From Parvularia atlantis (taxonomy: Eukaryota), in the NCBI GenBank assembly GCA_943704415.1, contig CALSCO010001240.1:1-50410 (forward strand): a stretch of DNA of 50,410 nucleotides. The letters are read 5' to 3'. Positions 2,658 through 50,410 of this stretch are shown here, one piece after another. The notes under the pieces were generated by a model that was not told the origin of the DNA, made no database searches, and worked only from the letters and a program-made list of their open reading frames with translations. A program made the translations under genes and the position numbers. Positions within the stretch are counted from its first letter, which is position 1; each line of letters begins with the position of its first letter.

Positions 2658-2717
2658 TCAGTGAGCGCTGCTTGCTGCTGTTTGTGGTAAGAGGGCGCGG
2701 GTCGCTCTATTTGAGTT

Positions 2718-5192: not shown

Positions 5193-6817
5193 TCACATCT
5201 CGCGGTCGAGGTCGGCGTGGCCAGCTGTGCTCAGCTCGGCGAGGATCGAGTCGGCGTCGAGTGTGACGGTCACGACGTCACGGCCCGGGTGCGACGTGGG
5301 CGATGCCGCGCCGGGGGCCACGATGCTGCTGTTGCTGCGGATCACGCGCAGGTGCTGCGACGAGCCGTCGTGCGAGCCCGCCGGCGACCGCGCGAAGAAC
5401 GTGCGCGCGAACCAGCCGCGCTGCGCCGTCGAGCCGCTGCCGGCGTCGCCCAGCGCCGACGACGAGCCCGCCTCGAGCGAGCTGTCGGCGACGATGAACT
5501 TGTTGGCGAGCACTGGTCGGCGCTCGTGAGCAAACGCGGTGCAGCCACGCGCGGCACGCACGGAGCTTGAACTCGACCAGCGCCTCCTCGTGGCGGAAGA
5601 GCAGGTTGTAGACGGTCGAGCAGACGAGCACGGTCAGGTAGATGTTGATGCAGCACCCGAGCTGCGGGCCGCGTCAGCGCGTGCGGGCTGGCGGCGCACG
5701 GCTCGCGCGCACCACGAGCGCGATGGCGATGCGCCCCGAGGCCGTGAATGTGGCGTTGATGAGCGACATGACCTGCCGTGCGCCACCCGTGAGCGCAGCG
5801 CGGCAGAGCACGCACCGGCACGCACGCACCGAGATGAAGATGATGCACGTGAGGTATCCGACGAAGCACAGCAGGCTCCGGCTGAACTCGTTGAAGAAGC
5901 GCGTGCGGCTGCGCCAGAGCCGCACAGCGAGCACGACGTACACAAACACGAGCAGCGCGTTGTGCGTGGCCTGCGCGACAAAGTGAGCGCTCGTCAGCGG
6001 GCGAGCGAGCGCTGCCGATCGGCGCGCACCAGGGCGTAGCTCGACGCGTCTGACAGGGAGCACAGCACGCGCGGGCCAGTCGGGAAGTTGATCAGCGTCC
6101 AGGGCCCGCCGAGGCCCAGCGCCGTGCTTGCGGCGGCGTACGGGATGAACAGGCCCCACAGCACGAGCGGCGGCGCGATGGCAATCCAGCCCGAGGCGTC
6201 GCGCTTCTGGCACACGATGAGGTCGAGCCGCCACAGGCGCCAGAGCAGCAGCGAGATCAGGCCCGTCGTCGTGCCGAACCAGAGCCACCCGGGCCAGAAC
6301 CAGCACGCTGCCGGGCAACGGTCAAAGGGGCCGACGCGGAGGCGGCGCGCACCGAGAAACACGCCCGTCTGCGGGATGATCCGCAGGGTGCACAGCGCCG
6401 AGAACCTGCGCGGCGCGGCCTCCCGTGAGCGCCCCGGCATCGCCCCGTAGGCGTGCGCACGCACACACCAAAGCAGCGCGCTGTCGACGAGGATCGCGTT
6501 CAGGAAGCTGACCGAGAGGATCTGCGACGCGGCCGAGACGGCGCGTTTCAGCGTGTGCCCGCACCCTGTGGTGCCGTGTGGCGCGCACCTTGACGTACTT
6601 GACGCTGCGGTTCAGGTTGATGACGGCAAACTGCGCCGCCGTGAGGCCAAACAGCACGCAGCCGGTCACAACAGCGGCCCTGGGACATGACGTCAGTCGC
6701 ACGCGGGGCCGCACGCAGAAAAGCGCGCTCGCACAGCTCGCCCGGCGTCCACTCGGCCACCGACAGCGGCACGCTCGCGTCGGCCGGGAAGGTGAGGTTG
6801 CGCTCAGGGTAGTCCAT
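5193..6817 (-). CDS. 7TM GPCR-like protein, copy 5
   Basis: MDYPERNLTFPADASVPLSVAEWTPGEL..NLNRSVKYVK|ILSVSFLNAIL..RIIPQTGVFL..CWFWPGWLWFG..RLWRLDLIVCQKR..RFFNEFSRS..LLFRHEEALVEFK..DLDREM*. Confidence 0.85.
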
Positions 6818-6940
6818 GCGACGTCGGCCGTGGGGAAGCAATCGTGTCCAAAGCAAAGCAGCCGATTGGTTGTGACGTCCTGCGCGTCGATTGGCCGCAG
6901 CTGACGCGCCAGCAATCTCACTGTTGGGCCGACACCGCGG

Positions 6941-9844
6941 ATGGAGGCGTGGGATCCTGGGCACGCCGTGTCGTGGCGCTTCCGTGTCGTGGGCTTGCTG
7001 CTGGCGGTGCCAACGTTCGCCTTCGCCGCGGCTGCCAACGTCGCGTCGGGCGCGACGTACGTCCTGCTGCTGACAACAGCCGACTACTTCTGGTTCGAGA
7101 TCGCTGGCCAGCTCTTCAGCCTCGGCGTGCTCGCGTTCGCGGCGCTCAGAGAGGGCCGCGGGGAGCTCCGCAAGGCCGCCCGCGACCACTACGATCTCAT
7201 GGCGGAGACGCGCAGCGTGGCCATGCGCCTGTGGATCTGGGCGATGCTCCCGCTGACGGTGTTGCTGCGGGCGGTGCAATGCGTGATGTCGCTCGTGATC
7301 GCCTGCGTCTACTTCCTCCTCGCCGGGGTCCTGCCCATCCTCCTCAGCATGCTCGTCTTCGAGACGAGCGACATGACGGCGCTGCTCGTCGTCATGTGGC
7401 GCAACATCGGCGACGGCACGCTCCTCCTGATCTCTCCCGAGCTCTTCCCGCTCCCCGACGACAACGACGACCAGCACGACGTGAACACGAGGGCCGCCGC
7501 CAGCAGCGACGACACCGCAATCGAGATGACGACATCAGCAGAGCAGCAGAAGGCAGCCTCTGGTGCCGACAAGGGCGCTGCGGGCGCACCGTCGCGGGCG
7601 GCGTTCGGCTTTGCGCTGCTGCTCATGATCGTCAGCATGGCACTGCACGTGTACGACACGTACTCGGACGTCGAGTTTTGCGTGCAGATGTACGTCCTTA
7701 CAGACTACGCGCGATACGGCCTTATCTCCACTCAGGCGGGCACGGCGGCGTTCGTGCTTGCGGTCATCTCGGGCGCAGTAAGCTTCGTCACGTTCATCGG
7801 TTCTTTGGTCGCCGCGGCTTGGATGATCCGGCGCGGCATGCTCACGTGGACGGCGTTTGTGCTCGACTTCAACCCGCTCGCGTCCACGCCGGAGGCGGCC
7901 AAGCACGACCGCTCGCGCCACCTGTCGCCGGTAAAGCTCATGCGGCTGATCGGCCTCTTTTTCGGCAACATGCTGCAGTTTGTGCTCGTGTTGGCCACAA
8001 CTGGCTACTTTGCGAGCGGTGACAGCAGCGAAATCTGGCTGCGCACGACCAAGGCGGCGATCTCTGCCGCCAGTATCGTGCTCACCATCTCGTCGACGTT
8101 TTCCAGCTGGGCAGCCTCGCCTGACGGCACGTACCCGCTCGCTCGGCGCACCATCCTCTTTGCTGCGGGTTTTGTGGTGTACGGTGGCACTCTGGCGCTG
8201 CTCGTTGCTCTATCGGCACTGGGTCGCCTGCCGGGCTCGTCGGTTTGCGCTGCAGGGCGCATCGTCGACTCGGTAAATCAGCTCGGCGTGCTGGCGGTAC
8301 CCTGCGAGCCGTTCACGGGGCGCGTGCTCGTTGTCGGCCTGCTCAACGTTTCCACCGTGCACATCGGGTACAAGTCTCTCAACAAGGGCGCGTACATCTC
8401 TTTCGAAAACAATCCAGGCCTTGTCAGTGTTGCTGCGCCCGAGCTGCGCTACTCCTACAGCAGGTCGTACGACGAGCTCGTGAGCTTCTTCAACAATCCG
8501 CTGCTGGAGGAGGTCAGCATGCCGCTGCTCACGAACGGCACAATCGTTTTTGATGCGAACCCGGCACTGCGGCTCGTCAACGTCTCTTCGCTCTGCGGCG
8601 GCTACGGTCTGGAAGTGCGCTCAACGATTGCTGGGGTGTCGGCCGGCAACGCTGAGGTTCTGCACGTTGTGTGCGGCTGCTTTATGGACACGACTGCGTC
8701 GCTGCTCGGCGGCGATCAGGCTGTCGTCGCGCACCTGGACGTCCTCGAAAACATCGGCTACGCGTACACGGTCAACGTCACCGGCTCGCCGACGCTGCGT
8801 ACTTTGCGCCTGCACAACAACACCGAGCAGTATGCCGACCTGATCCTGGATGCCAATCCGGTGCTCGAGGCAGTTGAGTTCGCCGGCGCTGAGATCTTTG
8901 TCCACATGATGGTTCGCGACAACCCGCTGCTGCACACGCTCGATGTCCCAAACGTGCGAGTTCAGATCGCTCTCGCTGGCTACATCGAGGTTTACAGGAA
9001 CCCGCGGCTTGTCTTCTTCAGCTTGCCAATGCTCCGCAGCGCAAGTGCGCTTTACGTCGGTGGGGCGCTCAACTTCACCAGCCTGTTTCTGCCGAGCCTG
9101 AAGGACGTCAGCCGATACTTCCAGGTGGACACGGTCGATGGTCTGACGAGCATCACTGCTCCGCTGCTCGAAACGGTCGGCAACGTTCGCGTGCTCGAGA
9201 ACGTCAACCTCACCACTCTAAGTCTGCCGTCGCTCTCGCACGTGCGTTCAACCTGCACATGCATTCTCGGCTAATACGCGTGTCTGGCACCGCAGATTTA
9301 TGCGCTGTGCATTCTGCAGAACAACCCTCGTCTGGTCAACGTGGACATGGCCAATGTGGTTTCGGTCGGTGTCAGTGCGGACGACAAGATCTTTGCTGCT
9401 GCGGCACTGTCGCTGCGTCTGTCGACCGTAACCCAGTGGCCCTTCCCCAATCTGCGGCATCTTGCTCTCAGCTGGCTGACCGTGCGGCTTAACGCGGCAC
9501 TCAGCACGATCGATCTAAGCAGCCTCGAGCGTCTCTTCTTCGTCAACCCGTGGCCAGTGGACGCGACAGCGAACCACTTCATCTCGTTCCGGCAGAACCC
9601 AGCTCTCACGAGCGTCAGCGCCAACGTGACCACCCAGATCTACGGCTGCACCGTGCCCGCCGGCGGCAGCGACAACGCGGCGCCGATCAGCGAGGCGTGC
9701 ACGCTCGGCTCATGGACGTCCCTCCAGGTCTTCGACTGCATTGTTGACCCGGCGATGCTGCCGGCATGGAACGCGACGGTGACCGGCCCGAGCGCTCTGT
9801 TCGATGGCTCGATCTGCCGTACTCTGACCGCGTCTTTGGCCTGA
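6941..9844 (+). CDS. Multipass membrane protein: XK-related-like TM region plus C-terminal receptor L-domain/LRR-like ectodomain
   Basis: A 777-aa ORF plus one intron (9242-9295, gtgcgt..cgcag) continuing IYALCILQNNPRL..TASLA*. About 10 hydrophobic helices in the N-terminal half, then CAAGRIVDSVNQLGVLAVPCEPFTGRVLV and many 'NNPxLxxvsxPxL' repeats with N-glycosylation sequons. Confidence 0.75.
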
Positions 9845-9874
9845 CCGCTGTCGAGTGCTGCTTTGCTCTTGTTT

Positions 9875-9930
9875 TGGTTTGCTGTGGTTTGCTGTGGTTT
9901 GCTGTGGTTTGCTGTGGTTTGCTGTGGTTT
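9875..9930. repeat. 10-bp tandem repeat (GCTGTGGTTT)x5 in the convergent 3' intergenic region
   Basis: Perfect head-to-tail copies at 9881-9930 plus a partial copy; no spacers. Confidence 0.95.
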
Positions 9931-10040
9931 CGGTTTCCTGTGCTTGCCCTTGTGTCGGTTGGCCTTCGATTGATTTCCAATCTCTCACATACAGCAGAAC
10001 GCAGCCTGAGGCGTGTTCGCGGCCAGCGCCCTCACCCAAG

Positions 10041-11772
10041 TCACGCCTCGCTCGGGCCGTCCGCCTTGCCCTCGGCGCCGAGGTCGGTCGAGCCGGTGAG
10101 GTCGGCGATGATCGAGTCGACGTCGAGCTTGGCGGTGCTCGGCTGCGGCGACGCGCCGCGCGAGCCGGCCGCCTTGTTGCCGCCGCCCGAGAGCATCGAC
10201 TCGGTCGAGCCGCGCACCTGGCTGAGCTTGACGTTGTCGGCGGCCGTGCGACGTGCGCCATAGCCGCCGCAGCACAGCACGGCCGCGAGCGCCGTGTCGG
10301 CGACGGTGCCGCTGCCCTGGCTGCTGAGCGCGCGCGAGTCGGTCGCGACCGTGCTGTCGACGATGATGCGCCGGTTGTGGACGACTGCGGGCGCGCGGGT
10401 GAGCGTGCTGGGGGTGGGCCGCGAGCACGGCGCACCCTCCGAGAACTCGGCCATGGCCTCGTCGTGGCGGAAGAGCAGGTTGTAGATCGTCCGGCCGATG
10501 AAGATCGACTCGAACGCGGTGATCGCACTGGCGACCTGCGTGCGCCGCGCGTGAGCGGGCGCCGCGCGTGATGACGCAGCTGCGCACACCAGCAGGATGC
10601 ACAGCGAGCGGCCCCAGGCCGCAAACGTGTAGTTGAAGAACACCATCACCTGCGCGGCACCGTCAGCGCGCGCCCGCATACGGCAGGCGCGCCCGCGAGG
10701 GGCACCGTGTAGATCACGACGGCGATCACAAACATCACAAAGGCCACGACGCTCTGCCTGCGCACGGTGCACGCGAATGTGAGCCGGCGGGCACACGAGG
10801 GCGAGCAAGAGGACGCACCAGTACTCGTTGAAGATGCGGTGGCGCGCGTTGCGCAGGCGCACGGCAAAGGTGATGTAGACGAAGGCGAGCAGCAGCAGGT
10901 GGATCATCTGCAAGTCGCGCGCGTGAGCCGCAAGGGCGTCACAGCACGGGCGCGCACGGACGCACGCCGCAGTAGGCGATCGAGTCAAACATGTAGCACA
11001 TGACGACGGGGCGGCCGCCGACGTCGGGGAAGTAGTACGGCCCGTCGCCGCGGATCACGCTCGCAGCGGTCGAGTAGGCCAGGAACGGGAGCCACAGCAG
11101 CGTCGGGAGCAGGTACAGCCGCCAGCCCTTGGCCGACGTGCGCTGGACGATGACCAGGTCGAGGCGGTACAGGCGCAGGATGAGCATGGCGAGGACGCCG
11201 CTGGCCGATCCGAACCAGCCGAAGACGTTCCACAGGTCGCAGACTGGTGCGGGGCGGCCCATGCGTGATGAGCGGGTGATCACGACACGCGCGGTGCAGC
11301 ATGCGCGCGCGCACCCAGGAACGCGCCCGTCTGCGGGATGAGCCGCGTCGACGTGAGGTTGCAGAACCTGCGTACGCGCGCGCACATCCCGGCGTCAGCC
11401 CGCCTCCCCTCGCGAACGGGCCACCGACGCCACCAGTAGAAGAAGGCCAATGCGAACGCTGCATTCAAAAAGTTGACGCTCAATATCTAAGCGTCCAATG
11501 TTTAGCAGTGTATGTATCCGGCGACGCGGCGACGCGCCTTGACGTAGCGCACGTCGCGGTGCACGTTGACGTAGATCAGCCCGGCCGCGTTGACGGCGAA
11601 AAGCGCGCAGCCGACGCACAGCGCGGCGCTGCATCGCGCGGCCGCCGTCAGCACGCGCCGCCCGCGAGAGCGAGACGCACAGCTCGGCACGCGACCACTC
11701 GTCCGGCGACTGCGGCACGGTCGCGCCGGGCGGGAACGACGCCGCAAACGGCAGCGGCGGGTACTGGTCCAT
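10041..11772 (-). CDS. 7TM GPCR-like protein, copy 6
   Basis: MDQYPPLPFAASFPPGATVPQSPDEWSRAEL..NVHRDVRYVK|ILSVNFLNAAF..RLIPQTGAFL..CDLWNVFGWFG..RLYRLDLVIVQR..RIFNEYW|RQSVVAF..LLFRHDEAMAEFSE..ADGPSEA*. Confidence 0.85.
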
Positions 11773-12154
11773 CCCTCTTCCTGCTGCTGCGTACCGTGAG
11801 CGAGCGGACCGCGCAGCGAATGGGAAGCGGCAGGCGGCCCACGAGGAGGGCCGAGAACGTGGCACCACAATACGAGCGGGAAACACGTTGCATTCCTTTG
11901 ACGTGCGCGCGCAGCAGGCCATGGTGGCGCGCACGGCGGCGAGCGCACGGCGCAGCAGATAAGCCGCGCGCAGACGGGCAACGGAACGCAGCGCGCGCAG
12001 GCTGACGACGGGGAGGCGTAAACAGCCTGAGAGCAAAAACAACCTGCCGCCCGTTGTTTCAGCTGCGTCACGGCGCTGTTTCAGCCCTGTTCCCACGCTT
12101 CTGTCTTCCTTCAGTGGCGCCGGTCTTGCAGCATTTGCATCACGAACATACACT

Positions 12155-26300: not shown

Positions 26301-28151
26301 TTTCCTGTCTTCGGTCCAGTTGCCCGTCGCGATCGCGTACGCGAAGCCGCCGGTGATGATGCTCGGCTGGATTGCCTTGCGCAGGTCAAACTCCTTCTTC
26401 TTGCTCAGCGACTGCAAGCCCGCATGGTAAGACAGCGCGAGTACATGCCAAGCAAGACCCGTGCCTTTTGCAGGTTCGTCTGGATGTTCTTGCGCAGGCG
26501 CTTGAACAGGCCGCGGAAGAGCGACGTGAGCAGCGGCCCAGCGAGGTCGCAGCGCTTCTTGCCGTAGTGGTCGCGATCGTCCTGTGCACAACAACCGTCA
26601 GCCCCCACTACGCACCCGCCCCACCGTGACCGGACGCACCGGTGTGCGCCGGCCGAGCGCAACGAGCATGAGGCGATGTACCATGTAGCCGAGGAAGTAG
26701 GCCTTCTTGGTGTCAAAGTCGGGCCCGATGCCGATGTGCGGTAGCATCTCGCGCTCGAGCACCTCGCGCGCGTGCTGCTTCTGGCGCTCCGAGTCGTGGC
26801 CCATCGTCTCGCCCGTGCGACCGATGAACTTGAGCGCCTCCTGCATGCGCCGGTGAGCACGGCCGCAGCACGCCGCACACAATGTCACGCACCGACTGCG
26901 TCGTGATGTCTTGCGCCTCACGGATGCACGGAATGAGTGCCTCGACCATCTCGTTGTCGTTCTGCCACGCAGCCACGTCAGACCACGCAGTTTCGCAAGC
27001 GGCACACGCGCACGATGTCGTAGCAGACGTAGCGCAGGATCTCGACGTCGGCGATGATGCCGAGCGCGCGGAAAACGATCGCGAGCGGGATCGTCTCGCG
27101 CATGAAGGGCAGCTGCACATGGATCGTCCGCCCGTGCTCGTCGCCACCCGCGATGCGGCTGAGCATGTACACGTACAGAGGCGAGGCCGGGCGCGGCGCC
27201 GTCTCCGCCTGCGAGCGGATTTCCGCCACAAACGCGTACTGCGCGCGGCGTCAACCGGCTGTGCACGCGTACGCGCACGCGCGCCGCAGCGGCGCCCGGC
27301 CGTGCCTTGTGCGGCATGTGCTTGGCAAAGATGTGCACAATGTTGTGCGCCATGCGCTCCTGCGCGATCAGCACCTTCTCGCTCCCGTTGATGATGAAGT
27401 AGCCGCCCTGACACCGCACGCACACACTCAGCTGCCTGGCCAGGTCCGACAGCCGCCGCAGCACGCACCTGGTCGAACGGGCACTCGCCCACGCTCGAGC
27501 TCTCCTGCAGCGTCATGTTGGACAGGTGGCACACGTTGGACCGGAGCATGATCGGGACCTCGCCGATGAACACGCGCTCGTGCACGCGCTCCTCGGTCAC
27601 GGCCTTGCGGCCGACACCGCGCGTCACCGTCTCCTTAATCTTCAGAAACAGGTTGGCGCTGTAGGTCATGCCGCGCAGACGCGCCTCGTTCTGTGCGCCG
27701 ACAGCTCAGGCAAAAAGAAGCACGAGAGGGGCGCAGGCCGCACCGGGTTGAGGATCTTCTGCTCGCTGCCGTTGGCCTCGGTGACCATCGGGCGGCTGAT
27801 AAACATCTGCATGAACTCGATCGCGTAGCGCCGCGGCACGTCGTCCTCCTGGCCGGTGTGCTGCTGCTCGACCTCGATCACCAGCTCCTTGTTGCGCTCG
27901 TGGTGCAGCACGCTCGACATGGTCGAGAGGATGAACCGGTCGAACGAGTCGAGCTGCTGCCGCACCAGCTTCTTCTCGTCGAAGAAGGCCGTCACGACCG
28001 GCCAGCACTCGTCCTGCGTGCGGATGTCGTCTTTTCGCCGCGGCCCCTCTCAGTTAACCACGACGCGCCGGCCGAAATGGCTGCGCGCACCGTCGCCGTA
28101 GTCCAGGTCCATGGCCCCGGCCCGGTCGTCGGCCATCTCGAGGCCCGGCAT
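23355..28151 (-). CDS. RPB2: RNA polymerase II second-largest subunit
   Basis: [124 protein letters not shown]; more than 20 short introns. Confidence 0.98.
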
Positions 28152-28401
28152 GCGGCGGCGGCGGCGGGCGGGCGGCGGCGGCTCGAGACGGGTTCAACGG
28201 GGCGCGCCGGAGCGGCACGAGGCGAAAACAAAAGTGACGTCGCTTTCCGCACCCGCTTTGTACCAGTACACCTCAGCTCATGTTTCACTTTGTCTGTCTC
28301 CCAGCCACGCACTTGTGATGGCTGTGGTGACGGACGCGGTTCGACACGCTGCGCGTGGGCTCATGGTTTTCACATCACGCTGATGGGCGGTGAGGGGAGA
28401 G

Positions 28402-29235
28402 TCATGCCGGCGGGGCGGCGCGCTCAGAGGCGACCTTCTGCAGGAACGCGATCGCGTCGATGACCTGCTGCGCGATCGCGCCGCGCACGACCCAGTTCGG
28501 GATCGACCCTGCAGCACCACTGCATCAGCCGGGTGCGCGGCAGACAAGGCAGAGAGAGGCGCACCGCGCACGTCCATGTGCAGCACAAAGACGAAGCGCG
28601 ACCCGCCCGCGGCCGTGCGCTGGATGATCATGCCGCTCGGGTGGTTATGCGCGCGCACGACGCCCGGCAGCGGCGGGAACAGCACGGGCTCGTCGATCGA
28701 CGCAAAAACGCTGTGCACGGACCCGTCCGGCAGCGTTCGCAGCGCGCGCACGTTCGTCAGCTCGCGCGCCGACACGAGCCCGCCCAGCGCGCCCTTGTGC
28801 ACGTTGTGGTACAGGTGCGTCTTGTAGCCGTCGGCGGTCTGCGGCCCCCACGCGTGCCTGAGCGGTCGATGGTGCGCGCGATCGGCACGCCGCACCTCCC
28901 ACACGACCTTGTCCTCCGTCAGGTCGTGCGCGGGGTCCCACTCCAGCAGGCGCGAGTCGTCCTCAATCGCCTGCGCGGCAGTCGGTACGGCGCACGGGCC
29001 ACGCAAGCGACATGCGGCGCACGCGGATGCATTCGATCGGCGCCATCGCCACCTCGCCCTCGCCCACGAACACGTCCGGCCCGCCGCCCGCCGCCACGCG
29101 CGTCACGCGGATGCGCCGAGCACGGTCCTCACTGAACACGGGCGCGCCCGTCGCCGCACGCTCGTGCGCGAGCACGGCAGTCTCGATCTCGCGCACGCGC
29201 GCGTCGTATGCGGCGCGGTCAACCTCCGCCGGCAT
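28402..29235 (-). CDS. START-domain lipid/sterol-binding protein (STARD4/5/6-like)
   Basis: RLLEWD, GALGGLVSARELTNVR, FPPLPGVVRAHNHPSG, LHMDVRG|SIPNWVV..QQVIDAIAFLQK; three introns. Confidence 0.85.
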
Positions 29236-29384
29236 TGCCGTCTGCTTGCTGGGATTGCGAGCACACCGCTGGATCAGTTGGCTAAGTAACTTTTACATAA
29301 CGCATTCCTCAGCCATCCGCTCGTCTGATGCGCCGCGGCCCATCCGCGGCCGCCGCGGCCGCGGGAGGACGAGATCTGCTGTGG

Positions 29385-32300
29385 ATGGAGCAGATGGGCG
29401 GCGCGGACGGCCCGCCGGATGCGGCGGACGGCACGGATGGACCGCACGCGTCTGGTTGGCGCGCGCGCCGTTTGTTGTCTGGGGCGCAACGTCACGCTGG
29501 ACCGGGCTGCGCCGTCGCGCCGCGCACTGCCCGCGCGCCGTCGCCGTTTTCTTCCTCTGCTGCGCCCCCACTGCTGTGCTCGCCGTCTGCTGCCCGTGCG
29601 GCGCGCACGACGCCGGCCCTCACCCCCCTATTGAAGCCGTGCGCGGCCCATCTCAACCCCGCACGTGCCGCAATTGCGAACGCCGCCGTTCACGTCGCGC
29701 ACGTTGCCGCCGTGTGCGCAGCGCCGTGTTCCCCCCTCCGCTACCGCCACCCCGCACGTCGCGCCGATTCTGACCGTTACGCACAGGAGCCGCGGCGGGA
29801 CCCGGATGGCCCGCGTGTGAATGGCGCGTCGCGTGCTGCCGCCGCCTTCGACAAGTGCGCACGTGCTGACGCATCACGACGACGACACACAGCCCAACCC
29901 CCACCACCAGCCAACGGAGCGACGGCAGATGCAGCAGGGCGCGCAGCAGACGCAGGCAAGTCACGTGACGCGCTTGTTTTGTCCCGGGCCTTGGCGCTGA
30001 CCTCGCGCTCGCTCCTGCTCTGCGCTCTTCGCAGTACGTGATGCGCAGCCGTGAGTACGACCAGGACGATCCGATGGTGCGTGTCTCACCTTTGTCGCGG
30101 CGCTGTTTCCTGATGCGCGCTCATCAACAGGGACGGTCGAGCTCGGCGCCGCCGCACCTGCGCGACGACGACGATTTGCCCGCTGCCGTGCGCGGCCGCT
30201 GTACGTGTCGGTGCTGCTGTGGCTGACACGAGCGCGGCGACAGTACGCTGCGCCGCCGGGCCGCGGCGCGAGCCACTTCAACGGCACGGGCGCTCGCATG
30301 CCGACGCTCTCGAGCGGGCCGCAGCCCAGCAGCAGCAGCAGCCCGTGGGCGATCTGGAACAACGCGGCCTTCCCCGATGACGCCGCCAAGGCCGCCGCTG
30401 ACCCGGCCGCGAGCTGGGAGGAGAAGCGTGCGTTTGCGTGCTTGCGCCGCCTTCGACCGCTCATGGACGCGCTCTGTGCAGCCAACAAGCCCGACAGCCT
30501 CGAGCGCACGGTCTCGCTCGACGCCGAGCATGGCGGCTCGCGCCTGCTGGGCCGCTGGACCGACAACCGCCCGGCCGTGGTCATGCCGCCGCTGCGCAAG
30601 ATGACGGTGCGGTGCTGCCTTCTGTCCGCTGCTGGGCTGACCCGCTCGCTCGGGTAACAGGACGACTACGCGCACAACTCGTCACCGCTGTATGCGTTTG
30701 GGCTGCAGAACGACGCGCACAACGAGCCGTTCAGCGGGGCGCACCCGTCGGGCAGCCATGGCGCGACGACGATCGGCATAATGCGCACGCTGTCGTCTCC
30801 GGCGACCGCAACGCTCGCGCGCGACGACGGCGGTGCGGCCTCGTCGCTGCCCTGCCTGCCCTCACTGACTGCTCGCCGCTAGTGCCAAGCATCGCCGCGC
30901 CCGTGACGGGCTCGCGGTCGGCCTCGAGTGACCTGCACAAGGACAAGCCATTCTCGCTGTCTGCCTCGGTGCGAATGTTGCAGTGACACATGCGGCCACG
31001 GCTGTCTCACGCGCGGTACAGGCAAACGTGAGCACGGCGCCGTCGCGCGTCGCCACGCCGCCCGTGCACGACGTCGGCAAGTCGGGCGATGGCGGCTTGG
31101 GACGGCCGCGCGTGGTCGACGAGGACGACGCCGTCGCCGCTGCGCTGTCGGGCTTCAACACGCTATCGCTCAACGCGTCCGACGTGGTGCGCTGCCGGGC
31201 GACGTTCGGTGCGCCGGTCTGACGAGCGCTCGCGCAGGACGAATACACGTCGGGGATGCCCGGCAACGACTTTCTGCTGTCTGGACAGTACAACGACGCG
31301 CGGCTTTCGGCGTACCCGTCGCTCGGACCACAGTCGGGCTCGCAGACGCAGTCGCCACAGATGGCGCCGCAGCGCACGCCGCCGACCGGCCCGATGGACG
31401 AGTACGAGTACGAGGCGATGCCGCGGCGGCAGGCGTCGGCGGGCTACGCCGGCTACCCGGTCGGCCGCGGGCCGATGGCGCAGCAGCAGACCGGCTACGA
31501 CTACTATTCGGCACAGGCCGCGCTCTACGCCGCCGTCGGGCCGTACCCGGGCGCGTACGGCGTGCCGATGACGCACGAGCAGTACATGAACAAGCTGGTG
31601 GCGGCCGCGGCGATGGGCGTGTACCCGGGCGGCGGCGCAGGCGGGCGGCAGGGCTACTACCCGCCGATGTGGGACGCCAACGGCACGGATATGTCGCGCG
31701 GTGCGCTGCCGAGCGGCTGCTGAAGGGTCGTGCTGACTGCGCGGCGGCCAGGCATGCCGGGCTCGTACGGCGGCTACCCCATGGGCTACCCGACGCGCGA
31801 GTACATGTACAAGCAGCACATGGCGATGGCCGCGTACGGCATGGGCCCGCCGCCGATGCGCTCCGGCAGCGGGATGAAGCGTGGCGGTACGTGCTTTGTG
31901 CCTTGTGCTGTGCGCGGCTGACGCGTGCGGGTCGCACAGGCTACGGCTCATCGTCCAACTCGTCGCTCTCGCCCAACTCGGCGCCGTCGCCGAACGGGCC
32001 ACGGTCGATGGTGCTGGAGGAGTTCCGCGCCAACAAGAACAAGAAGTACGAGCTGCGGGTGCGTGTAACCTTGCGTATTATGTGTGCTCGTCGCTGACGC
32101 TGCGGCGGCCGCGCAGGACATCACGGGCTACGTTGTCGAGTTCAGCAGCGACCAGCACGGCTCGCGCTTCATCCAGCAGAAGCTCGAGGTGGCTCCGAAT
32201 GACGAGAAGCAGCTAGTGCGTGCTGGCCGCACCTGGAGTGCTTTGCTGATGGTGCATGCCACAGATCTTTGACGAGATCGCGCCGGCCGCGTTGAGCCTG

Positions 32301-33478
32301 ATGACGGACGTGTTTGGCAACTACGTGATCCAGAAGTTCCTCGAGCACGGTGCGTCGTTGCGGGGGAAGCGGGAACGGCGTGGGCTGACTGTATGTGTGT
32401 GCCCTTGCGCGCAGGCACCGATGCGCAGCGCGTGGCCCTGGCCGAGAAGATGCACTCGAACGTGCTGACGCTGGCGCTGCAGATGTACGGGTGCCGCGTC
32501 GTGCAGAAGGTGCGGTTCACCCGTGCTCGCGCCTAGCGAGCAGCGCTGACGCCGTGCGTGTGCAGGCGCTGGAGCAGATTGACCCCGAGCAGCAGGCTGC
32601 GCTGGTGCGCGAGCTCGACGGGAACGTGCTGCGGTGCATCAAGGACCAGAACGGCAACCACGTGATTCAAAAGTGCATCGAGCGCGTGCCACCGAACCGG
32701 ATTCAGTTCATCATCGACGCGTTCCACGGCCAAGTGTTCAGCCTCGCGACACACCCGTACGGCTGCCGCGTGATCCAGCGCATCTTTGAGCACTGCGACG
32801 AGGAGCAGACGGTGCGCGGCGCGTTTGTCGCGTGTGCGAGCTTGCTGATCGTTGTGCGCAGCGGCCACTGCTGGACGAGCTGCACAACTTTGTGCCGCAC
32901 CTGGCGCAGGATCAGTACGGCAACTACGTGATCCAGCACATCCTCGAGCACGGCAAGGTGCGCCGCGGCTTGCATTGGCGCACAGCGAGCGACTCACACA
33001 GCATGGGGCGCAGCCGCGGGACCGCGCGCAGATCATTGCCAAGGTCAAGGGCCAGATCCTGGTCATGTCGCAGCACAAGTTCGCGTCCAACGTGGTCGAG
33101 AAGTGTGTGCACAACGGGACCAAACGCGACCGCATGGTCATGATCGAGGAGGTCATCACGACGCGCGCCGACGGCGTTACGCCGCTGCTGGTGATGATGA
33201 AAGACCAGTTCGCCAACTACGTGATCCAGCGCATGGTCGACGTCGTCGACGGCGACCAGCGCGAGACGCTGATCCAGAAGATCCGCCCGCACCTGGCCAC
33301 GCTGCGCAAGTACACCTACGGCAAGCACATCATCTCCAAGGTGCGTGGCCCGTGCACGCGGGCGAGGGTGGCTGACATGACGTCGCCGCAGGTCGAGCGC
33401 TACATCAGCCAGGGCTACGGCAGCCACCACGGCAGCAACGGCCACCTGCACTCGAGCGAGACGCTGGCGACGGCCTGA
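29385..33478 (+). CDS. PUM: Pumilio-family (PUF) RNA-binding protein; start uncertain (alternative ATGs at 29929, 30041)
   Basis: [12 protein letters not shown] followed by eight PUF repeats with recognition motifs SRFIQ, NYVIQ, CRVVQ, NHVIQ, CRVIQ, NYVIQ, SNVVE, NYVIQ, ending [15 protein letters not shown]; long Y/G/P/M-rich N-terminus. Confidence 0.95.
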
Positions 33479-33731
33479 GCGCGCCGGGGGACATGTGCAC
33501 CTTTTTTTTTGTACCATCTGTTTCTTTCGCGCGACCGTGCGCCGTGCTGTAACTCTCTGTCCTTTTTCTCTGTGCTTCCTACACACTTCACGTTCCCGTG
33601 TCGCGTCTGTTGCCCATGGCTCATTGCACCCTTCCCCCGCTGAACTTGATCCCTCCCTCCGCGCCACCCGTTGTGTGATCGGATCGCGAGACTGCACGCT
33701 GTTCGGTCTGCCAGCACAAGCACAGCGGGAC

Positions 33732-35462
33732 TCACACCGACGCCATCGCCAGCACGGCCGCGACCGCGCCTGCCAGCGCCACGGCCAGCGCGCCCCACGG
33801 CATCGCCGACGCCGCGGCCCTGCTCGTGTTGCCGCCGCCGTTGCCGCCGTTGTTGTTGCCGCCGGACGACGTCGGCCGGTTGCTCGGGAAGCCGCTCGGC
33901 TGGCCCGACGGCACATCCGACGGCGCCAGCGACGGCGGGAAGGTCGGCACGGCCGTCGTGGGCGTGGGCGGCATGGTCGGAATGAGGTCGGGCGAGCTCG
34001 GCGGGTACGTCTGAAGGCGCGTCAGCCCGTGTGTGTCGATCAGTGCAAACGAGCAGGCGCACCTGGTTGCCCGCGTAGATAAACGCGACGGCGTTGCCCA
34101 GCGTCGTGTAGGCGTTGAGGTAGCCGTTGTATGTCGTCAGGCCCCACTGAATGTTGCTCTGGCGCACCGATCAGCACGCGCGCACGCAGACGCACGAGGG
34201 CGCACGCACCAGATACAGCTCGACCTGGACCTTTTGCGTCGCGGCGTAGTTGATAAAGTCCTGTGCGACGTGCCGTGAGCGACCGTGCGACCTCGCAAGG
34301 GAAGCAAGTCGACGGCACCTGCAGGTTCTGCGGCGCGGCGGTGACGAGCGTCGTCGCGTCGATCTGGATCGTCGTGACCTTGAGCCGCGCGAGGTTGAAG
34401 AGGCTGTTGGTGAACCGGAAGACGGCCTGGGTCGCATTCATGCCTGCGCGTCGGGCTCAGCACAAGTACGGCATGTCTTGTGCGCGCGCACCGTAGTACT
34501 GGATCAGCGACGAGTCCGAGATCCACACGTTGACGTTCTGCACGGCGTTGGCGAACGACACGCCCGGCGTGACCTTCATCTCGGCGAGCGAGTTGAGCTC
34601 GTGGATGACAAAGCCGCGGAACGAGGTCGCGTTGAGCTGGCGCGTCATAATCACGCTCGTGTTGACCAGCGTCCCGTGGAAGTACTGGTAGCCACGCTCG
34701 TAGAACGTGCCGGGCGGGTACGAGATGTTGGCGGCCTGCGTTCGCACCCGTCAGCAGTGCTGAGACTGTCACGGCGCGCGCGCACCTCAACGCGCAGGTT
34801 GCACGTGATGCCGTTCTGCACCGCGTAGCGGCACAGCTCGACGTTCTGGCTGCTGGCGATGAGCACGTCGGTCGCCTGCCGTTGCGGTCAGTGCCGGCGC
34901 GAGAGGACGGTCGGGCACGCACCTGGCTCACAGTGATCGACAGCAGCGCGCCTGCGAGCGCCTTCATCTCGTCGATGATCTGCCGGCGCCGCGCGTCAGC
35001 AGTCGTTGCGGTCGCAGGCAGGCGGTGCACGCACGTAGTAGCCGAACGGCCGCGTGTTGTTGTTGGCGTCGGTGTAGGGGTAGCGGAAGACGTCGCCAAA
35101 GTACGACGGCATGACAAAGTTGAGCGGGACCGGGTTGCCCCAGACGGACCACCACCTGGCGGGGCAGCCGCCGTCAGACGAGAGCACGAGGCACGGGGGG
35201 ACCGGGCGCACGCACTGCGGGACGTAGGAGTAGAACGTGCGGAGCTGGTCCATGGCCTCGGCCGTGTTGGTCAGGAAGAAGGGCGAGACGTAGGCGCGCG
35301 GGTCGAGCACGACGGCACTAGGGCGGATCACGTCGGCGGCATGGCTCGCGTCTGTCGGGCGCGGTGAGGACGTGCTGTGACCGCGCGCACACACGGCGAC
35401 GTACGTGCGAGCAGCAGGGCGCCGATCACGGCCGCGCAAACGAGGCGCTGGGTGTGGGCCAT
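33732..35462 (-). CDS. Secreted, probably GPI-anchored protein with a putative TIM-barrel-like domain and P/S/T stalk
   Basis: Signal-like start MAHTQRLVCAAVIGALLLA; about 10 exons that appear to splice in frame; PTxxPS-rich linker; hydrophobic C-terminus WGALAVALAGAVAAVLAMASV*. Confidence 0.75.
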
Positions 35463-35644
35463 GTTGACGGACGTGCGACGGCAGCAATAGAGGAGGGGAT
35501 GGCCGAGAACTGGTCCCGGCAGCCGCGCGCGCACGGGGCACTTATACGTCGCCGTCAGGCGGACGTGGCTTGTGGAGGCCCTGTCGACGCGCGCACGACG
35601 TGGCCCCGCACACGGGGCGCGCACCGGGTCCCGGATGGCCGAAA

Positions 35645-35662
35645 GGGGGGGGGGGGGGGGGG
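35645..35662 (+). repeat. G18 homopolymer between the divergent GPI-protein and IP3R-like genes
   Basis: 18 consecutive G directly before the first recognisable IP3R-like codons. Confidence 0.9.
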
Positions 35663-38600
35663 CAACAGAACTTTTTCAGCCTCGCGCAGCAGACCCGCGG
35701 CCTGGCCAACACGTACAAAATCGAGATCGAGTCGTGCATCGCGGTGCTCTTCCGCCTGTTTGAGACGTTCAAGATCGGTGCGCGCCACTGCCGCCGCCCA
35801 ACGACGTCGGGCAAACTGTGCCGCGGCGCACAGCCATCGGTTCGGGCCTGGACTCGGACGTGCCTGCGTTCCTCGAGAAGCGCCACCACACGAACCGGGT
35901 GCGTGAGAAGAGTCGTGTCCTGCCGCTGCGCGCGCTCAGACGCGGCCGTCGCGGCGCGCAGGCGATCAACACGTTCTTCGAGAACTGGCGCACGCGCAAG
36001 GGTGCGGCCGACAAGATGACGGCGTCGCGCAAGCTCTCGCAGTCGACGGTGCGCGCTGCGCCGTGCCTGGCCGCGAAGAACTGAGCACGGCGCGCAGATC
36101 GAGCTGCAAAACAGCATCGCGTCGCACCTCGGGCCGTTCTTTGAGCAGATGGAGCGCGACAACATGCCCATGATCGAGACCGGTGCGCCGCGGCGCTGCC
36201 CCTCGCCTGCCGACGCTGACAACGGAGGAGCCGCGCAGAGCGTGCGGTGCTCGTGGACGTCGTGCACCACTCGGCGCGCCTGTACTCGATGGACGCGACG
36301 GTCACGGACTCGCCGCTGCTGCTGCACCACAACTCGGGCGGCAAGGTGCGTGCTGGCGTAGTGCGCCGGCGGGCTTGACGGATGACGATGTGTGCGCGCA
36401 GGTCGGGGCGGCGCCGTCGTCGGGTGCGCTCATCGGCAAACTGGTCAAGCATGTGCGCTCGAAGCACTACGACAAGAAAGTGCGCACGACAACGCGAGTG
36501 CGCACGGCGGTTCTCACATGCACACGCGCAGTGGAAGCTCGAGCTGCTGTCGATCTTCTTGCGCATGATGACCGCGAGCACGCTCAGCGACGACGCTGCC
36601 ACGCTCAAGCAGTATGAGTTGGTGCGTGCGCGTACGCTGTGCATGGGGGGCGATGCGGACGGCCGCTGAACGACGGCGCGTGCATGCGCAGGACAAGTAC
36701 TTTGGGCGGTCGCGCATGTCGTGGGCGATCGACGTGCGCGCGATCCAGGACGAGCTGGACCAGTGCGGCGTGTCGGACCTGGTGATCGACCTCGCGTCCA
36801 GCAAGGACGACCGTGCGCGCTGCCTCGCGGCTCAGGCGGACGCTGACCCCGGCGCGCGTGCGCAGCGATGGTCTTTGTCGAGTCGATCCGCCTGGGCATC
36901 GCGCTGCTGGACGGCGGCAACACGACCGTGCAAAAGTCGTTCTTCGAGCGGTTCTCGTCCGGCACGGCGAGCGACTTTTTCAAGAACATCCAACGGCGGA
37001 TGCAGGAGAGCATGCAGGAGATGGAGTCGACCGTGGCCGTCAAGTCGTCCGACAAGCGCGGCACGGGTGCGCAGTGCGCCCTGCTGTGTGCGCCGCCGCT
37101 CATCGATCGCCGCGACGCCAGCGGGCTCGACCGAGTCGGCCAGCGTGCGCGCAACGCGCAACTCGCTCAAGCTGACGGACGACTTCAAGACGATGCAGCT
37201 GATCCTGCGCTTCCTGCAGCTGCTGTGTGAGAACCACAACGTCGACCTGCAGGCAAGCGCGCGTCCTCTGATCGCGGACGGTGCTGATGCACGCGCGCCG
37301 GCAGCTCACGCTACTCAAGAACAACCTTGTGCAGCAGACGCTCGCGTACCTGGACTACGTCTGCGCGAGCGCAATCGCTGGCGTGAGCGTGACGACGCTG
37401 CTCAAGTGCGCATGGCATTCGGGGCCGCGTGCGTGTGCTGACGCCCGGCGCAGCTCCGAGGCGCGCGTCAACCTCATTATCCAGTGCCTGACGACGCTGA
37501 CCGAGTACTGCCAGGGCCCGTGTCGCGAGAACCAGGTGCGCGACGAGCCTCACCGCCGCGGAGACCGCTGCTTACGACGACGTCCGGTGCAGGACTGCGT
37601 GGCGACGCATGACTGCCACGCGTTTGAGCTGTCCAACAACATCATCAACGTCGACCTGGGCATGCTGTCGACGCCGCTGCCAAAGTCGGCGGACGGGCTT
37701 TCGCGGCTCGTGTCGTTCCTGCAGGTCAAGGTGCGTGCGTGGCCGACGCCGAGGTCAGCCGGCACGCTGACCGCTGCGCCAGAACAACGTGTGCAAGTTC
37801 CTGCTCAGCGTGATCGAGAGCCGCGCGCCTCACGAGATCCCGGACAAGCTCGTGTACAACATCGACCTGATTGCACTGGTGCGCACGCGGGCATGCGCGC
37901 ACGGCGCGCGCACGGCTTAGCTTGTCGCGCTGCCGTACGCAGAGCAAGACGATCAAGCTGGTGCACCGCCTGCACTCGAGCGAAGTCTTCGTGGTCGAGG
38001 CCAACCACGACACGGTGGAGCAGGTCGCCTACGAGCTCGGCCAGAACCTGTTCCTGCTCGCGACGCAGCTCAGCAAGACCTCGGCCGACCGGCACGACAG
38101 CATTCACGCCGACTCGGACGTGTCGCTCAAGTACTACGCGTCGCTGACGGGGTGCGCCGAGTGCCGTCCGCGCGCGCGTGGGTCTCACGAGGAGCGCGCA
38201 GGACGATCGAGCTCGTGCGCAAGGGCCGGCTCGAGCAAATCAGCTTCCCGATCCCGTACGTGTGCCAGTTCCTGACGGACGAGTCCAAGACAGACATCAT
38301 CGAGAACTCGAAGCGCGACGAGCAGGGTGCGTGCGTGTGCGCGCGCCCGTGAGCACCGGGCTGCCTGCTGAGCGTGACACGCGCGCGCGCGCCCTCAGGG
38401 TCCAAGATCCCGCACTTTTTTGCGCGCATGGGCGAGCTGTACAGCGAGATGAAGTGGCAGAATCGGCTGCGCAAGTGGAAGGAGGTTTGTGGCGCGCAGG
38501 GCTCTGGCCCCCGCCTGACCCACCGCGCGGCGGGGCGCAGCTGTCGTGGCTGGCGCGGCACATCTCGACGTGGAAGGTGATCGCATTCTACGCCTCGGTC

Positions 38601-40275
38601 GTCATCAATTTGCTCATCATCTTCACCTTCCCGCTCACGAGCGACGGCTGGGGCGCGATCGCGACCGTGGTCCAGTGGACGCTGGCCCTGGGTGGTGCGC
38701 CTGACCGCTGCTGTGCACTGTGACCGCCGTGCCGACACCCGTGCGCGTGCGTGCGCAGGCCTGTTCCAGATCGCCATGGCCATCGTCATCTTGTGCAGCT
38801 ACGTCGGTGCGCGTCAGCACACAGGCCTGCCGCTGGATGCGTGAACACTAACCGTGCGCACGCGGCAGCCAACTACGGGCTGCTGTTGCTCAAGCAGGGC
38901 AGCCTGTGGAAGGACCTGATGCTCGACTACCACCTGGGCTACCTGTTTGTGGCCGTGCTGGCGCTGCTGCACCACCCGCTCTGGCACTCACTGCTCTTGC
39001 TCGACATTGGTGCGTCGACTGCTGCTCCCGGGGGGATGCTCGCGGGCTGAGTGCGGCGCGTGTAGTCGTGCGCGACGAGACGCTGCAGAACGTGATCAGG
39101 AGTGTGACGCGCAACGGCCGGGCCATCCTCGTCACGGGCGCGTTTGGCGCGATCATCATCTACCTGTTCTCGGTCGTGGGCTTCCTGTTCCTGCAGAACG
39201 ACTTTGTGCTCGACGTGGAGGACATGCAGGAGCGCGCGTGCGATTCGCTGCTCCTGTGCATGACGACGGCCCTCAACCATGTGCGCATCTGCCTGCGCGC
39301 TCGGAACGCGCTGCTGACGTGCGGCGGCGGGCGCGCAGGGCCTGCGCCAAGGCGGCGGCATCGGCGACATCCTGCTGCAGCGCAGCGTGCGCGACCCGCA
39401 CTTTGGTGCGCCCTGCGCGCTCTGCAGCGTTGAGGTGGTGATGACGCTACGCGCCCGCGCCAGCCACGCGCGTCGTGTACGACCTCACGTTCTTCCTGGT
39501 GGTGATCACGATCGTGCTGCACCTGATCGACGGCATCATCATCGACACGTTCGCCGACCTGCGCGCGGAAAAGTGCGTGGGCCAGCGGTACCCTTCGTGC
39601 GCCCAGTGGCTGACGCGCGCGCACGCGCGCTGCCGCCAGACAAGAGATGGAAGAGAACCGCAAGAACACGTGCTACATCTGCGGCCTGCACCGGTCCGCG
39701 TTCGAGCACAAGGCGGTGCGTCGCTGGGCGCGGAGGCCAGGGGCGCGGGGCGCACTCACGCACGCGCAAGGTGACCTTTGACGAGCATGTGACGAGCGAG
39801 CACAACCTTTGGAACTACCTCTACTTCATGGTGCACCTGTGGCAGAAGGACCCAACCGAGTACACGGGGCCCGAGTCGTTCGTGGCGCACATGGCCAGGG
39901 CGCAGTCGCTTGACTGGTTCCCGCGGCTGCGCGTGCGTCGCCGCCCGCGAGTGGCTGGACGCTGTGCTCACGCGTTCGTGCCTGCGCGCAGACGATGTCG
40001 ATCAGCTCGCAGAACGAGGACTCGGAGCAGGTCGACGCGCAGCGCCTGCGGCAACAGGTGGCCGACACGAACGCGATGGTGCGCAGCACGCATGCACTCC
40101 CCCAGCCGCTTCGGCCGACATACGGCGCGCGTCGCAGGTGGTCGACCTTCGCCGCCAGGTCGTCGCGATGCGCATGGAGGCGATGGAGCAGCGGCGGCAG
40201 GCGCTCATCACGACGATGCGCACGCGCCCGTCGTTCTCGACCATGGACCTCTTCGGGCGCACGGCGACAACGTAG
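35663..40275 (+). CDS. ITPR: Inositol 1,4,5-trisphosphate receptor-like Ca2+ channel, C-terminal part only (RIH-associated, ion transport, zinc finger, coiled coil); start unresolved
   Basis: [131 protein letters not shown]. No MIR/IP3-binding or suppressor domain exons were found upstream. Confidence 0.93.
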
Positions 40276-46858: not shown

Positions 46859-48130
46859 TCACTTCTTGATGAACGACTTCCCGCTCGCGGTCTTGTTGCG
46901 CTCGACGGGCAGATCGGGCTTGGCGCGGTTGAGCACCTTGAGCAGCGAGTCGACGCGTGCGCGCATGCGCGAGTGCTGATGCGCCGGCCGTCAGCTTGGT
47001 GGTACGCAGACGGGGCGCCGAGGCCGCGCACCATGTACGCCTTCGAGCACTTGATGTGGTAGTGCAGGTAGTCGCGGAAGGTCTGGACGAGCGAGATGGC
47101 CATCTCGCGGTTCTTCTTGTCAAAGTGGCGCGGGTTGAGCACTGCGGCACATGGGGAGCGGCCGGTCATGCGGCCTGCCGCGCGTGGCGCAGGGCGGTCC
47201 GAGCGCACCAAACGTGACGTAGGTCGTGTTTTTGTCGCTCACGAGGCCCTTGACGTCCTTCAGCTCGACCGGCGGGTCCTTCGGGTAGTACAGGACCTGC
47301 GCGGCGCGCGGCTCGCGTCAGCCGTGGGCGGACGGCGCAGCACGGACGCGTGCCTGCGGCGCGTTCTGCAGACCCGGCTGGCGGCGCGCGTCGGCAAACT
47401 CCTGCAGGAAGACCTTGCCGAAGATCGAGTCGGTGTCGTCCTTGAACGTGGTCGAGAAGATGACCGTGACGCGGTCGGCAAAGCCCTGAGTGCACGCGCG
47501 CGCGGGGTGGCGTCAGCGTGCGCCGTCCTTGCGTGCGCCGCTCATACGCACGCGGATGAAGATGGTCTCGTTGTCGCGGTAGTGGATCTGCATCATTTCC
47601 GTCTCCTTGCCGGCGGTCTGCGCGTCGAACGCGCGCGCGAACGGCGCGGCGAGGGTGTTGCGCTTGAGCAGGGCGATCTTGTTGATGAGCGCGGTCACGT
47701 CCTCTGCGCGGCGCGGCTGGGTCAGCACGGTACGGCAGAACACAAGGCGCGGGCGTGGTGCGGCGCACTCTCGTCCTTGGGCAGGCTGTCGCGGTTGATC
47801 TTGAGCGTGAAGTCGTACGAGTCCTCGACCGGCGCGACCAGGTCCTTATACTCGTTCTTGAGGTACTCGTTCGCGCCAAACTTGGCCAGCTCGCTGAAGC
47901 ACTTCCACGCGATCGACACCACGACCTCGTTCTTCGAGCCGGCCGGCGTCCCCACGTGGAAGAGCACGCCGTCAAAGTCCGCGAACTTCATGTCGACGCT
48001 CGAGGGCTCGCTGCGCGCGGCTCAGCTTTGGGGGGCAGCGAGGGCGGGACGGGCGCGCGCCGGCGCACCTCGAGAAGCGGTCCTTGAGCGCCTCGACGAT
48101 GATCGCGTTCGCGTACTCGAGCAGGATCAT
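46859..48130 (-). CDS. ARPC2: Arp2/3 complex 34 kDa subunit
   Basis: [106 protein letters not shown]. Confidence 0.97.
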
Positions 48131-48286
48131 GGCGGCGGGCGGGCGGGCGGGGCGCGGGCGGGTGGCGGCTGTGTGTCCGAGCGGGCGCGCGGTGCGTGAG
48201 CGTGAGCATGGACCAGAAGGCTGCGCGAGCGAGCGAGCAGAGAAAACATCAGGCAGCGCCGGAGGGGCACGGCGCACGCGCCACCA

Positions 48287-49616
48287 ATGAGCGTGTGCGC
48301 GTGGCTGACGTGCGGCATTTGTCATGCCCGCGAGATGAAGTGCGGCTATTGCCTGCCGTCTGCGCGCGCGCTCGCTCACACATCGGCCCGGGCCAGCGTC
48401 GTGCGCGAGATCGAGCGCATCAACGAGCGCGAGCTCCAGCGCGCCGTCCCCGGCAGCGCCACCTGGCACGACCAGTACAAGGACTCGGCCTACGTCTTTG
48501 TCGGCGGCCTGCCGTACGACCTGACCGAGGGCGATGTCATCTGCATCTTCTCGCAGTGCGCCGCGGCCCATGCGTGGCGTGCGCGCCCGGGGTGACGCCC
48601 GCATGGCACGCAGGTTCGGCGAGATCGTCGACATCAACCTCGTGCGCGACCCAAAGACGGGCAAGTCGAAGGGCTTCGCGTTCGTCGCGTACGAGGACCA
48701 GCGCAGCACGACCCTGAGCGTGGACAACTTTAATGGGACCAAGGCACGCGCCGGGTGCAGACCGGTAGCACGCTCACACACACGGGCGCGCGCGCGCGCA
48801 TCGATGCAGATCATGGGGCGCACCATTCGCGTCGACCACGTCGGCAAGTACAAGCACAAGACCAAGAAGGACGAGGAGGAGGCGCCCGACCCGGAGATTG
48901 AGGCGATGAAGGCCGAAGCACTGTCGCTCGACCCGCGCGGTGCGCCCGCCTCGCCTCGCGCGCGCATGAGCACCGCTGAGCTCGCCGCAGTCATGCAGGA
49001 AAACTACAAAAAGACGTTTGGCATCGAGAACCGCCAGGCCGAGCGCAAGAGCGCCGTGACGTCGGCGCCACTCGAGGACGAGGACCCGCTGCTGGTGCGT
49101 GCAGGGTGTGCCACGCGGCAGCCCTCGCGCTCACGCACCGCGCAGGCCATGAAGCGGGCCCAGAAGCTGCGCAAGGAGCAGAAGAAGCGCGAGAAGAAGG
49201 AGAAGAAAGAGAAGAAGGCCAAGACGGGGAAGACGCCGGGCGATAGGTCGTCCGACTCGGACTCGGACGCCGAGCGGCCACCGGTCAAGAAGGTTGACCT
49301 CGCTGCGGCCGGCGCGGAGGACGAGGGCCTTGCGATCCGGCCGCCGCGACCTGCGCCTCGTGCTGAGCGCGATCGCGAGCCAGTGCGTGAGCCAGAGCGT
49401 GAGCCAGTGCGTGAGCCAGAGCGCGGACGAGAGCGTGAGCCAGTGCGCGATCGGGAGCGCGACCGCGACCGCGACCGCGACCGCGACCGCGACCGCGACC
49501 GCGACCGCGAGTACAAGCGTGATCGCAGCCGCGAGCGTGACCGGAAGCGCAGCCGAAGCCGAAGCCGAAGCCGAAGCCGAAGCCGCAGCCGAAGCCGAAG
49601 CAGAGAACGCAGATGA
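48287..49616 (+). CDS. RBMX2: RES-complex splicing factor RBMX2/Ist3/Snu17 (RRM plus RD/RS tail)
   Basis: [98 protein letters not shown]. Confidence 0.95.
49372..49605 (+). repeat. Coding tandem repeats: REPVREPE units, (GACCGC)n = DR, (AGCCGA)n = SR
   Basis: Visible directly in the last RBMX2 exon. Confidence 0.9.
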
Positions 49617-49658
49617 CAATATAGGCCTAATCCTGCAGATCGGATCGGCGGCGATCGC

Positions 49659-50410
49659 ATGGCCACCGCGCGGCGGGCGACGTCGCGCACGGTGTCGCAC
49701 GACTCGGCCACGATCCAAGTGCACGCCGCTACTGGCCCGTATCCCACCCTGACGGCGGCGCGGCGCAGGCCGACGTGCTCGCGCTCGGCGCGGCCACACT
49801 GCGGCGGCTGGACGGCGACGAGACGCTGCGCCTCGGCTCGCTCTGGCTCGACCGGCCCTGCGTGCTCGTGCTCGTGCGGCGCACGGGCTGCTACCGCTGC
49901 CTGGCCGCGGCGCAGCTGCTATCGGCGGCGCGGGCCCAGTTCGATGCGCTCAACGTGCAGCTCGTGGCCATCACGCACCAGTGCGCCACGCCCGGTGACC
50001 GCGAGGACGCGGCCGTGTACCAACGGCGCTTCGCGGGCACGGTCCTGGCCGACCCATCGGCCAGCGCGTTCAAGGCAGCCAAGGTCAACACGTTTCTGGG
50101 TGCGTGGGCGGCGCGCGGCGTGCGTGGGCGGGCCGGGCCGGCTGAGCGCGCGCGGCAGGCTTTGTGAGCAACTTCCGCTCATCGCTGCTCCACGGCGGGC
50201 CCGAGTTCAGCGCACTCGTGATGGAGCTGAAGGCGGCCGGCAACGGGCGCGGGGTCAGCCTGAACGGTGCGCACAGCACGGAGGGCGTGCGCAGGCAGCT
50301 GACGCCGCAGGGCGGGGCAGGGTCAGCGGTGTACGTGATTGAGCCGGGCGACCCGGGCCGCATCGTCTTCGAGCAGCGGTGCGCGCGGCGGTGGCTGAGT
50401 GCCCCCCGGG
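49659..50410 (+). CDS. Peroxiredoxin-like 2 / AhpC-TSA (FAM213/AAED1-type) thioredoxin-fold protein, 3' end outside the window
   Basis: LGSLWLDRPCVLVLVRRTGCYRC..LNVQLVAI..VLADPSASAFKA..QGGAGSAVYVIEPG..IVFEQR; CxxC motif. Confidence 0.8.

Follow-up and report, generated by a model that had tools for sequence, protein, structure and literature searches.

The window, that is, the whole stretch of 50,410 nucleotides that we analysed (Parvularia atlantis, contig CALSCO010001240.1), is GC-rich (61-73% in 2-kb bins) and intron-dense, and it carries the C-terminal part, roughly the last 40%, of an IP3 receptor (IP3R) gene. The 35 kb upstream of the IP3R exons is taken up by a dozen or more genes, lying on both strands: a group of multi-TM paralogues, genes with EAP30, WD40, RPB2, START and Pumilio matches, an E2F-like gene, and a gene divergent from the IP3R. 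The multi-TM genes form a cluster on both strands at 240-13730, in which the motif P(Q)(T/N)G(A/V)FL occurs five times and LF/LL-RH(D/E) six times clearly and once doubtfully; five of its exons gave no match in Pfam, and the cluster is possibly a lineage-specific receptor family. The E2F-like gene (21047-23260) has two E2F_TDP Pfam matches, which we take to be the arrangement of atypical E2F7/8-type factors. The housekeeping genes assigned by Pfam lie at 16200-33480 and 47000-50400 and also include p34-Arc, an RRM protein and AhpC/TSA.

Two sequencing runs from two studies match the window, a DNA run of 2022 (X1, with 0.97 of the words of the stretch) and an RNA run of 2015 (X2, with 0.42), which come from different samples. 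X2 was taken as RNA because its contigs have spliced joints, and X1 as DNA because its contigs are unspliced; X1 may be the same sample as the source of the window. Contigs of both runs were aligned on 34000-37100, and together with the reading frames and homology they define the following features:

33730-35462 (ATG at 35460-35462), reverse strand: divergent gene of the left flank, unrelated to IP3R, from RNA and reading frames
34318-35541, reverse strand: RNA cover of the 5' part of the divergent gene (X2 contig 9, in pieces)
35645-35662, no strand: run of 18 G's, the longest in the window and the likely point of a misjoin (X1 record 1 and X2 record 10)
35663-35668, forward strand: CAACAG, probably the last letters of an IP3R intron that lacks its donor here (RNA contig and donor survey)
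35669-40275, forward strand: C-terminal 27 exons of an IP3R gene, 1,035 aa (spliced model, homology, profile and Pfam)
39351-39368, forward strand: selectivity filter GGGIGD, from the sequence and its alignment with animal IP3Rs
39520-39531, forward strand: pore helix variant H-L-I-D, with His at rat N2583, Asp at the gate residue F2586 and I2590 kept (ungapped structure match)
39671-39803, forward strand: C2H2 zinc-finger residues (Cys 39671, Cys 39680, His 39786, His 39801), split by intron 24

Eight introns of the divergent gene are spliced in X2 contig 9 (CT..AC ends), and its RNA reaches 35541. It has a hydrophobic N-terminus, a Pro/Thr-rich stalk and a hydrophobic C-terminal tail, so that its predicted product resembles a secreted or GPI-anchored protein; no Pfam family was found on the four stretches of it that were scanned. 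IP3R-like coding starts 206 bp from its ATG, in agreement with the distance of about 200 bp given in an earlier note on this DNA.

Splicing the window at consensus sites gave an IP3R model of 27 exons and 26 introns, from 35663 or 35669 to 40275. The introns are 48-72 nt long, 25 of them GT-AG and one GC-AG. Counted from 35663, the model has 1,037 codons with no internal stop and ends in TAG at 40273-40275; counted from the acceptor at 35668, it has 1,035 stop-free residues. The truncation described in the earlier note thus stands, with a size of 1,035 aa in place of roughly 1,100, as do the intact frames, splice sites, filter and zinc finger. Compared with animal IP3Rs, the model shows 35-37% identity over long blocks (E to 3e-163), and it spans positions 1533-2738 of 2745 in an HMM of 21 full-length animal IP3Rs drawn from 120 listed proteins. 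Its first residues correspond to about 1514-1515 of rat IP3R1 (numbering via P0004 and chain 6mu1). The RIH-associated domain (RIH_assoc, PF08454) was found with 36.2 bits against a cut-off of 28.5, while Pfam Ion_trans stayed below the cut-off when the exons were scanned singly. The zinc finger (C-x2-C...H-x4-H) aligns with those of animal IP3Rs, as does a C-terminal coil of the IP3R type. We rejected a ryanodine receptor (RyR) identity, as the pore is closer to IP3R: the pore exon scored 35.5-37.5 bits on IP3Rs versus 23.5-25.3 on RyRs, with all 12 IP3Rs ranking above all 39 RyRs. Exon 21 as the query matched four proteins from 99 candidates, two of them named animal IP3Rs and two unnamed. 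Judged by its sequence, the gene is an IP3R on every feature tested here (filter, S6 type, RIH-associated domain, zinc finger and coil).

In the alignment with animal IP3Rs, the region between TM1 and TM3 (38541-38806) is about 40 residues shorter, and the luminal loop ahead of the pore helix (39066-39280) about 60 residues shorter. Missed exons could not fit into the introns of these two regions, given their small size. In rat IP3R, the region between TM1 and TM3 is described as holding the MA1-MA2 helices (PMC8149723). The single GC-AG intron lies at 37253-37304 and is followed by an exon a few residues shorter than in homologues; this boundary may be misplaced.

The pore register was fixed by an ungapped match to solved structures, in which query residue 2 corresponds to 2566 of 6mu1/3jav. 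At the two variant positions, 119 of 123 animal homologues have N..F, the other four lacking the region. Among the best 150 of 250 representatives, the F2586 position is F in 148, C in one and D in one, and this sole D match (P0124) also has His at N2583. P0124 shares 91% identity over 32 residues, then reads through into an intron that has the same position but an unlike sequence, and belongs to a cluster of two members (P0124 and P0274, on 8 and 10 contigs). The unlike intron read-through suggests that P0124 is probably from a different organism, and the aligned sequences indicate that the His/Asp variant is likely real and common to this second organism. A search for the locus of this His/Asp relative led, among the 596 stretches listed, to one locus (L001), which is an unrelated IP3R with a canonical N..F pore and so gives no information on the N-terminus of the orthologue. 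It is an intron-poor IP3R of another microbial eukaryote (positions 1-5219), cut at both contig ends, and its coding sequence begins with the contig and extends past the point that corresponds to the break. F2586 and I2590 are described as the two hydrophobic seals of the closed pore and N2583 as lining a cavity Ca2+ site, and the F2586K substitution is reported to attenuate Ca2+ release (PMC9663519). We found nothing relevant on F2586D, F2513D, F2585D or N2583H in the literature, of which subscription papers and supplements, including those of the Capsaspora study, could contain such alignments.

We looked for the N-terminal part of the receptor across the whole window. When the IP3R HMM was compared with 1,100 six-frame ORFs, every domain at iE<5 lay at profile position 1604 or beyond. 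A tblastn search with the first 1,450 residues of 21 animal IP3Rs against both strands returned just three matches, at E 0.28-0.48, whereas the C-terminal part, used as a control, gave a match at E<=2e-22 for each of the 21 proteins. Neither the suppressor, MIR and IP3-binding core nor RIH (RYDR_ITPR) domains were found in the window by these searches, which are weak for short divergent exons: of the first seven exons of the model itself, most escaped the scan when taken singly. With this restriction, the results agree with the earlier note, which found no such exons upstream, and for their absence the occupation of the 35 kb by other genes is a stronger argument than the profile scan. A search with exon 1 for a longer protein from the same organism had two candidates and gave none at E<=10, which is weak evidence.

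The start of the IP3R coding coincides with the run of 18 G's; no other run of G's in the window is longer than 7. Of the 26 introns of the model, 24 have a donor beginning with GTGCG, versus none of the seven GT dinucleotides in the flank at 35541-35662, where we found neither a consensus donor nor an in-frame ATG for the first exon. Positions 35666-35668 read CAG, and the triplet before it is CTG in the RNA contig described below versus CAA in the window, so CAACAG is best read as the end of an intron. The break lies mid-domain, at an acceptor for which there is no consensus donor. The earlier note had named two possible start codons. The ATG at 35635 lies 28 nt ahead of the frame, and a run of 17 G's would indeed bring it into frame, as would one of 20. 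The ATG at 35499 can reach the acceptor at 35668 in frame, solely via non-consensus donors (10 candidates). Both starts were rejected as non-homologous, since the window's own sequence upstream of the first exon scores -13 to -22 on the IP3R profile in the three frames. Positions 35635-35655 read ATG GCC GAA AGG and then G's, and this ATG may be the true start of a gene that continues on X1 record 1.

The evidence at the join itself comes from assembled contigs rather than reads, one of RNA and one of DNA. The RNA contig, X2 record 10, is 2,005 nt long, and its last 79 letters (1927-2005) lie on 35666-35744 with no differences, while the other 1,926 nt fall outside this segment and off the aligned stretch 34000-37100. 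The 30 letters next to the exon, which had no match in the whole window with up to three mismatches allowed, read KNHLFFIALL in the exon frame, running into QNFFSL; homologues at this position read QTRQPVFVRLLQGAFRV. All 10 of these codons have G or C at the third position, compared with 93% in the IP3R model. The register on the 21-sequence IP3R profile was fixed independently by the window's QNFFSLA, which scores 9.5 there and negatively in all six neighbouring registers. At that register KNHLFFIALL scores 11.6, ranking 10 of 2,694 profile positions, and a score at least as high was reached by 65 of 20,000 shuffles, 256 of 86,813 window 10-mers and 4 of 1,028 model 10-mers. One column off, at the register from an ungapped scan, it is not significant, with 2,200 of 20,000 shuffles scoring as high. 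Taken alone, this peptide offers modest evidence of IP3R coding.

On the other side, the DNA contig X1 record 1 (16,080 nt) follows the window at 34000-35655 with its letters 8732-10387, without a difference over 1,656 bases, and departs after 11 G's of the run. It continues for 5,693 further letters, none of them aligned on 35656-37100, and this path away from the window has a depth of 193. Among the contigs aligned on 34000-37100 there was no X1 contig along the IP3R exons; several bins within 35768-37100 have zero depth in X1, which we did not count as evidence of absence. No contig listed for X1 or X2 bridges the join. As one contig leaves on the left side and the other enters on the right, both flanks of the G-run continue elsewhere.

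We consider it highly likely that the headless IP3R is an assembly artefact in which two loci were fused at the G-run, a chimera that had been raised as one possibility beforehand and that X1 record 1 and X2 record 10 now support. The left partner would be the promoter or 5' flank of the unrelated divergent gene, and the right partner the end of an IP3R intron, each carrying a G-run. Contigs presumably broke at these homopolymers and were then merged on a short overlap of shared G's, which would leave the missing upstream exons on another contig. The observation named in advance as telling against a headless gene, a misjoin with the N-terminal exons elsewhere, has thus largely been made: the contigs diverge at the G-run, and the placement of those exons on another genomic contig is what we infer from this. 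Provided that the whole of the RNA contig is coding, the true protein likely has at least 1,677 residues, and the 1,926 nt would reach to about rat residue 870, covering one RIH domain. The IP3-binding core spans about rat residues 224-604, and the extension would still stop short of it. From what is known of the family, the intact gene would be expected to encode a complete ER Ca2+-release channel that forms tetramers and opens in response to IP3 and Ca2+.

A real headless copy, arising from a recent partial duplication of an IP3R beside this promoter and acting as an IP3-independent channel or modulatory subunit, is very unlikely. The intact frames, splice sites, filter and zinc finger would suit such a copy, but a normal gene predicts an intact C-terminal half equally well. 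The ATG at 35635 is only one base out of frame, the altered gate would fit an unusual subunit, and C-terminal IP3R fragments have been reported to be leaky and complementary fragments to assemble (PMC5209332). The RNA contig, with its 1,926 nt further upstream, would then have to come from a full-length copy, and because the X1 contig leaves the left flank within the G-run, that flank would have to be duplicated too. We found neither an in-frame ATG or consensus donor nor a transcript 5' end at the truncation, where a naturally headless gene would be expected to have its own start. The suggestion of a split gene is likewise unsupported, as the RNA contig crosses the break in frame.

It is also highly improbable that the join is genuine and that the preceding exon is either separated from the first exon here by over 35 kb, as a giant intron containing other genes, or joined to it by trans-splicing. 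This would explain why the RNA contig reads in frame, why the acceptor has no partner and why the 30 letters are missing from the window, but all 26 introns are 48-72 nt long, the interval is filled by the genes on both strands, and the X1 contig departs from the window after 35655. We give similarly little credence to a true rearrangement at the G-runs that broke the gene in one allele or a sub-population of the culture. The RNA and DNA runs are indeed different samples, and rare variants get dropped from contigs, but the DNA run with 97% of the stretch's words takes the other path at a depth of 193, and no listed contig spans the join of the window.

Under the misjoin, the real gene might still represent an undescribed protist IP3R lineage, with a ring of four aspartates at the F2586 gate, His at N2583 and no MA1-MA2, gated at I2590 alone and perhaps without a need for IP3, and its N-terminus beyond about rat 870 could still lack the IP3-binding core; we regard this as unlikely. 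The remaining value of the locus is its unusual His/Asp gate, which is worth a small follow-up, as a natural Asp at F2586 in two genomes is a ready test of the role of the upper seal. There is also a broader lesson: where a truncated gene begins at a long homopolymer, the first step should be a comparison with read-derived contigs.

Truncated relatives do exist, and the precedent in Paramecium cited by the earlier note is sound. CRC-VI-3, a natural Ca2+-release channel of the same superfamily, is described as having a truncated N-terminus and a cDNA-verified length of 2,021 aa, within a range of 2,021-3,130 aa for the 34 Paramecium CRCs listed (PMC3213138). In that case cDNA verifies the truncation, whereas the cDNA-derived sequence here points the opposite way. 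Fragments of IP3R1 offer another comparison, as C-terminal products of caspase and calpain are reported to be leaky and complementary fragments to reassemble into IP3-regulated channels (PMC5209332). These are likewise channel halves without the IP3-binding part, but they arise by proteolysis of the full-length protein and are not encoded by a gene. The window gene can be explained with no recourse to either precedent. In Capsaspora, IP3 binding is reportedly confined to the A form of the receptor. The presence of IP3R-A and IP3R-B in this organism illustrates that unicellular relatives of animals have IP3Rs (PMC9522344). The closest comparison is with animal IP3Rs (rat IP3R1 in 6mu1/3jav, ITPR2 and ITPR3), with which the window gene has in common the order and sequence of the C-terminal regulatory region, the RIH-associated domain, the six-TM pore, the GGG(I/V)GD filter, the I2590 gate, the zinc finger and the C-terminal coil. 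It differs from them in being represented only from about residue 1515, in its Asp for F2586 and His for N2583, and in the regions that are about 40 (TM1-TM3) and 60 (luminal loop) residues shorter.
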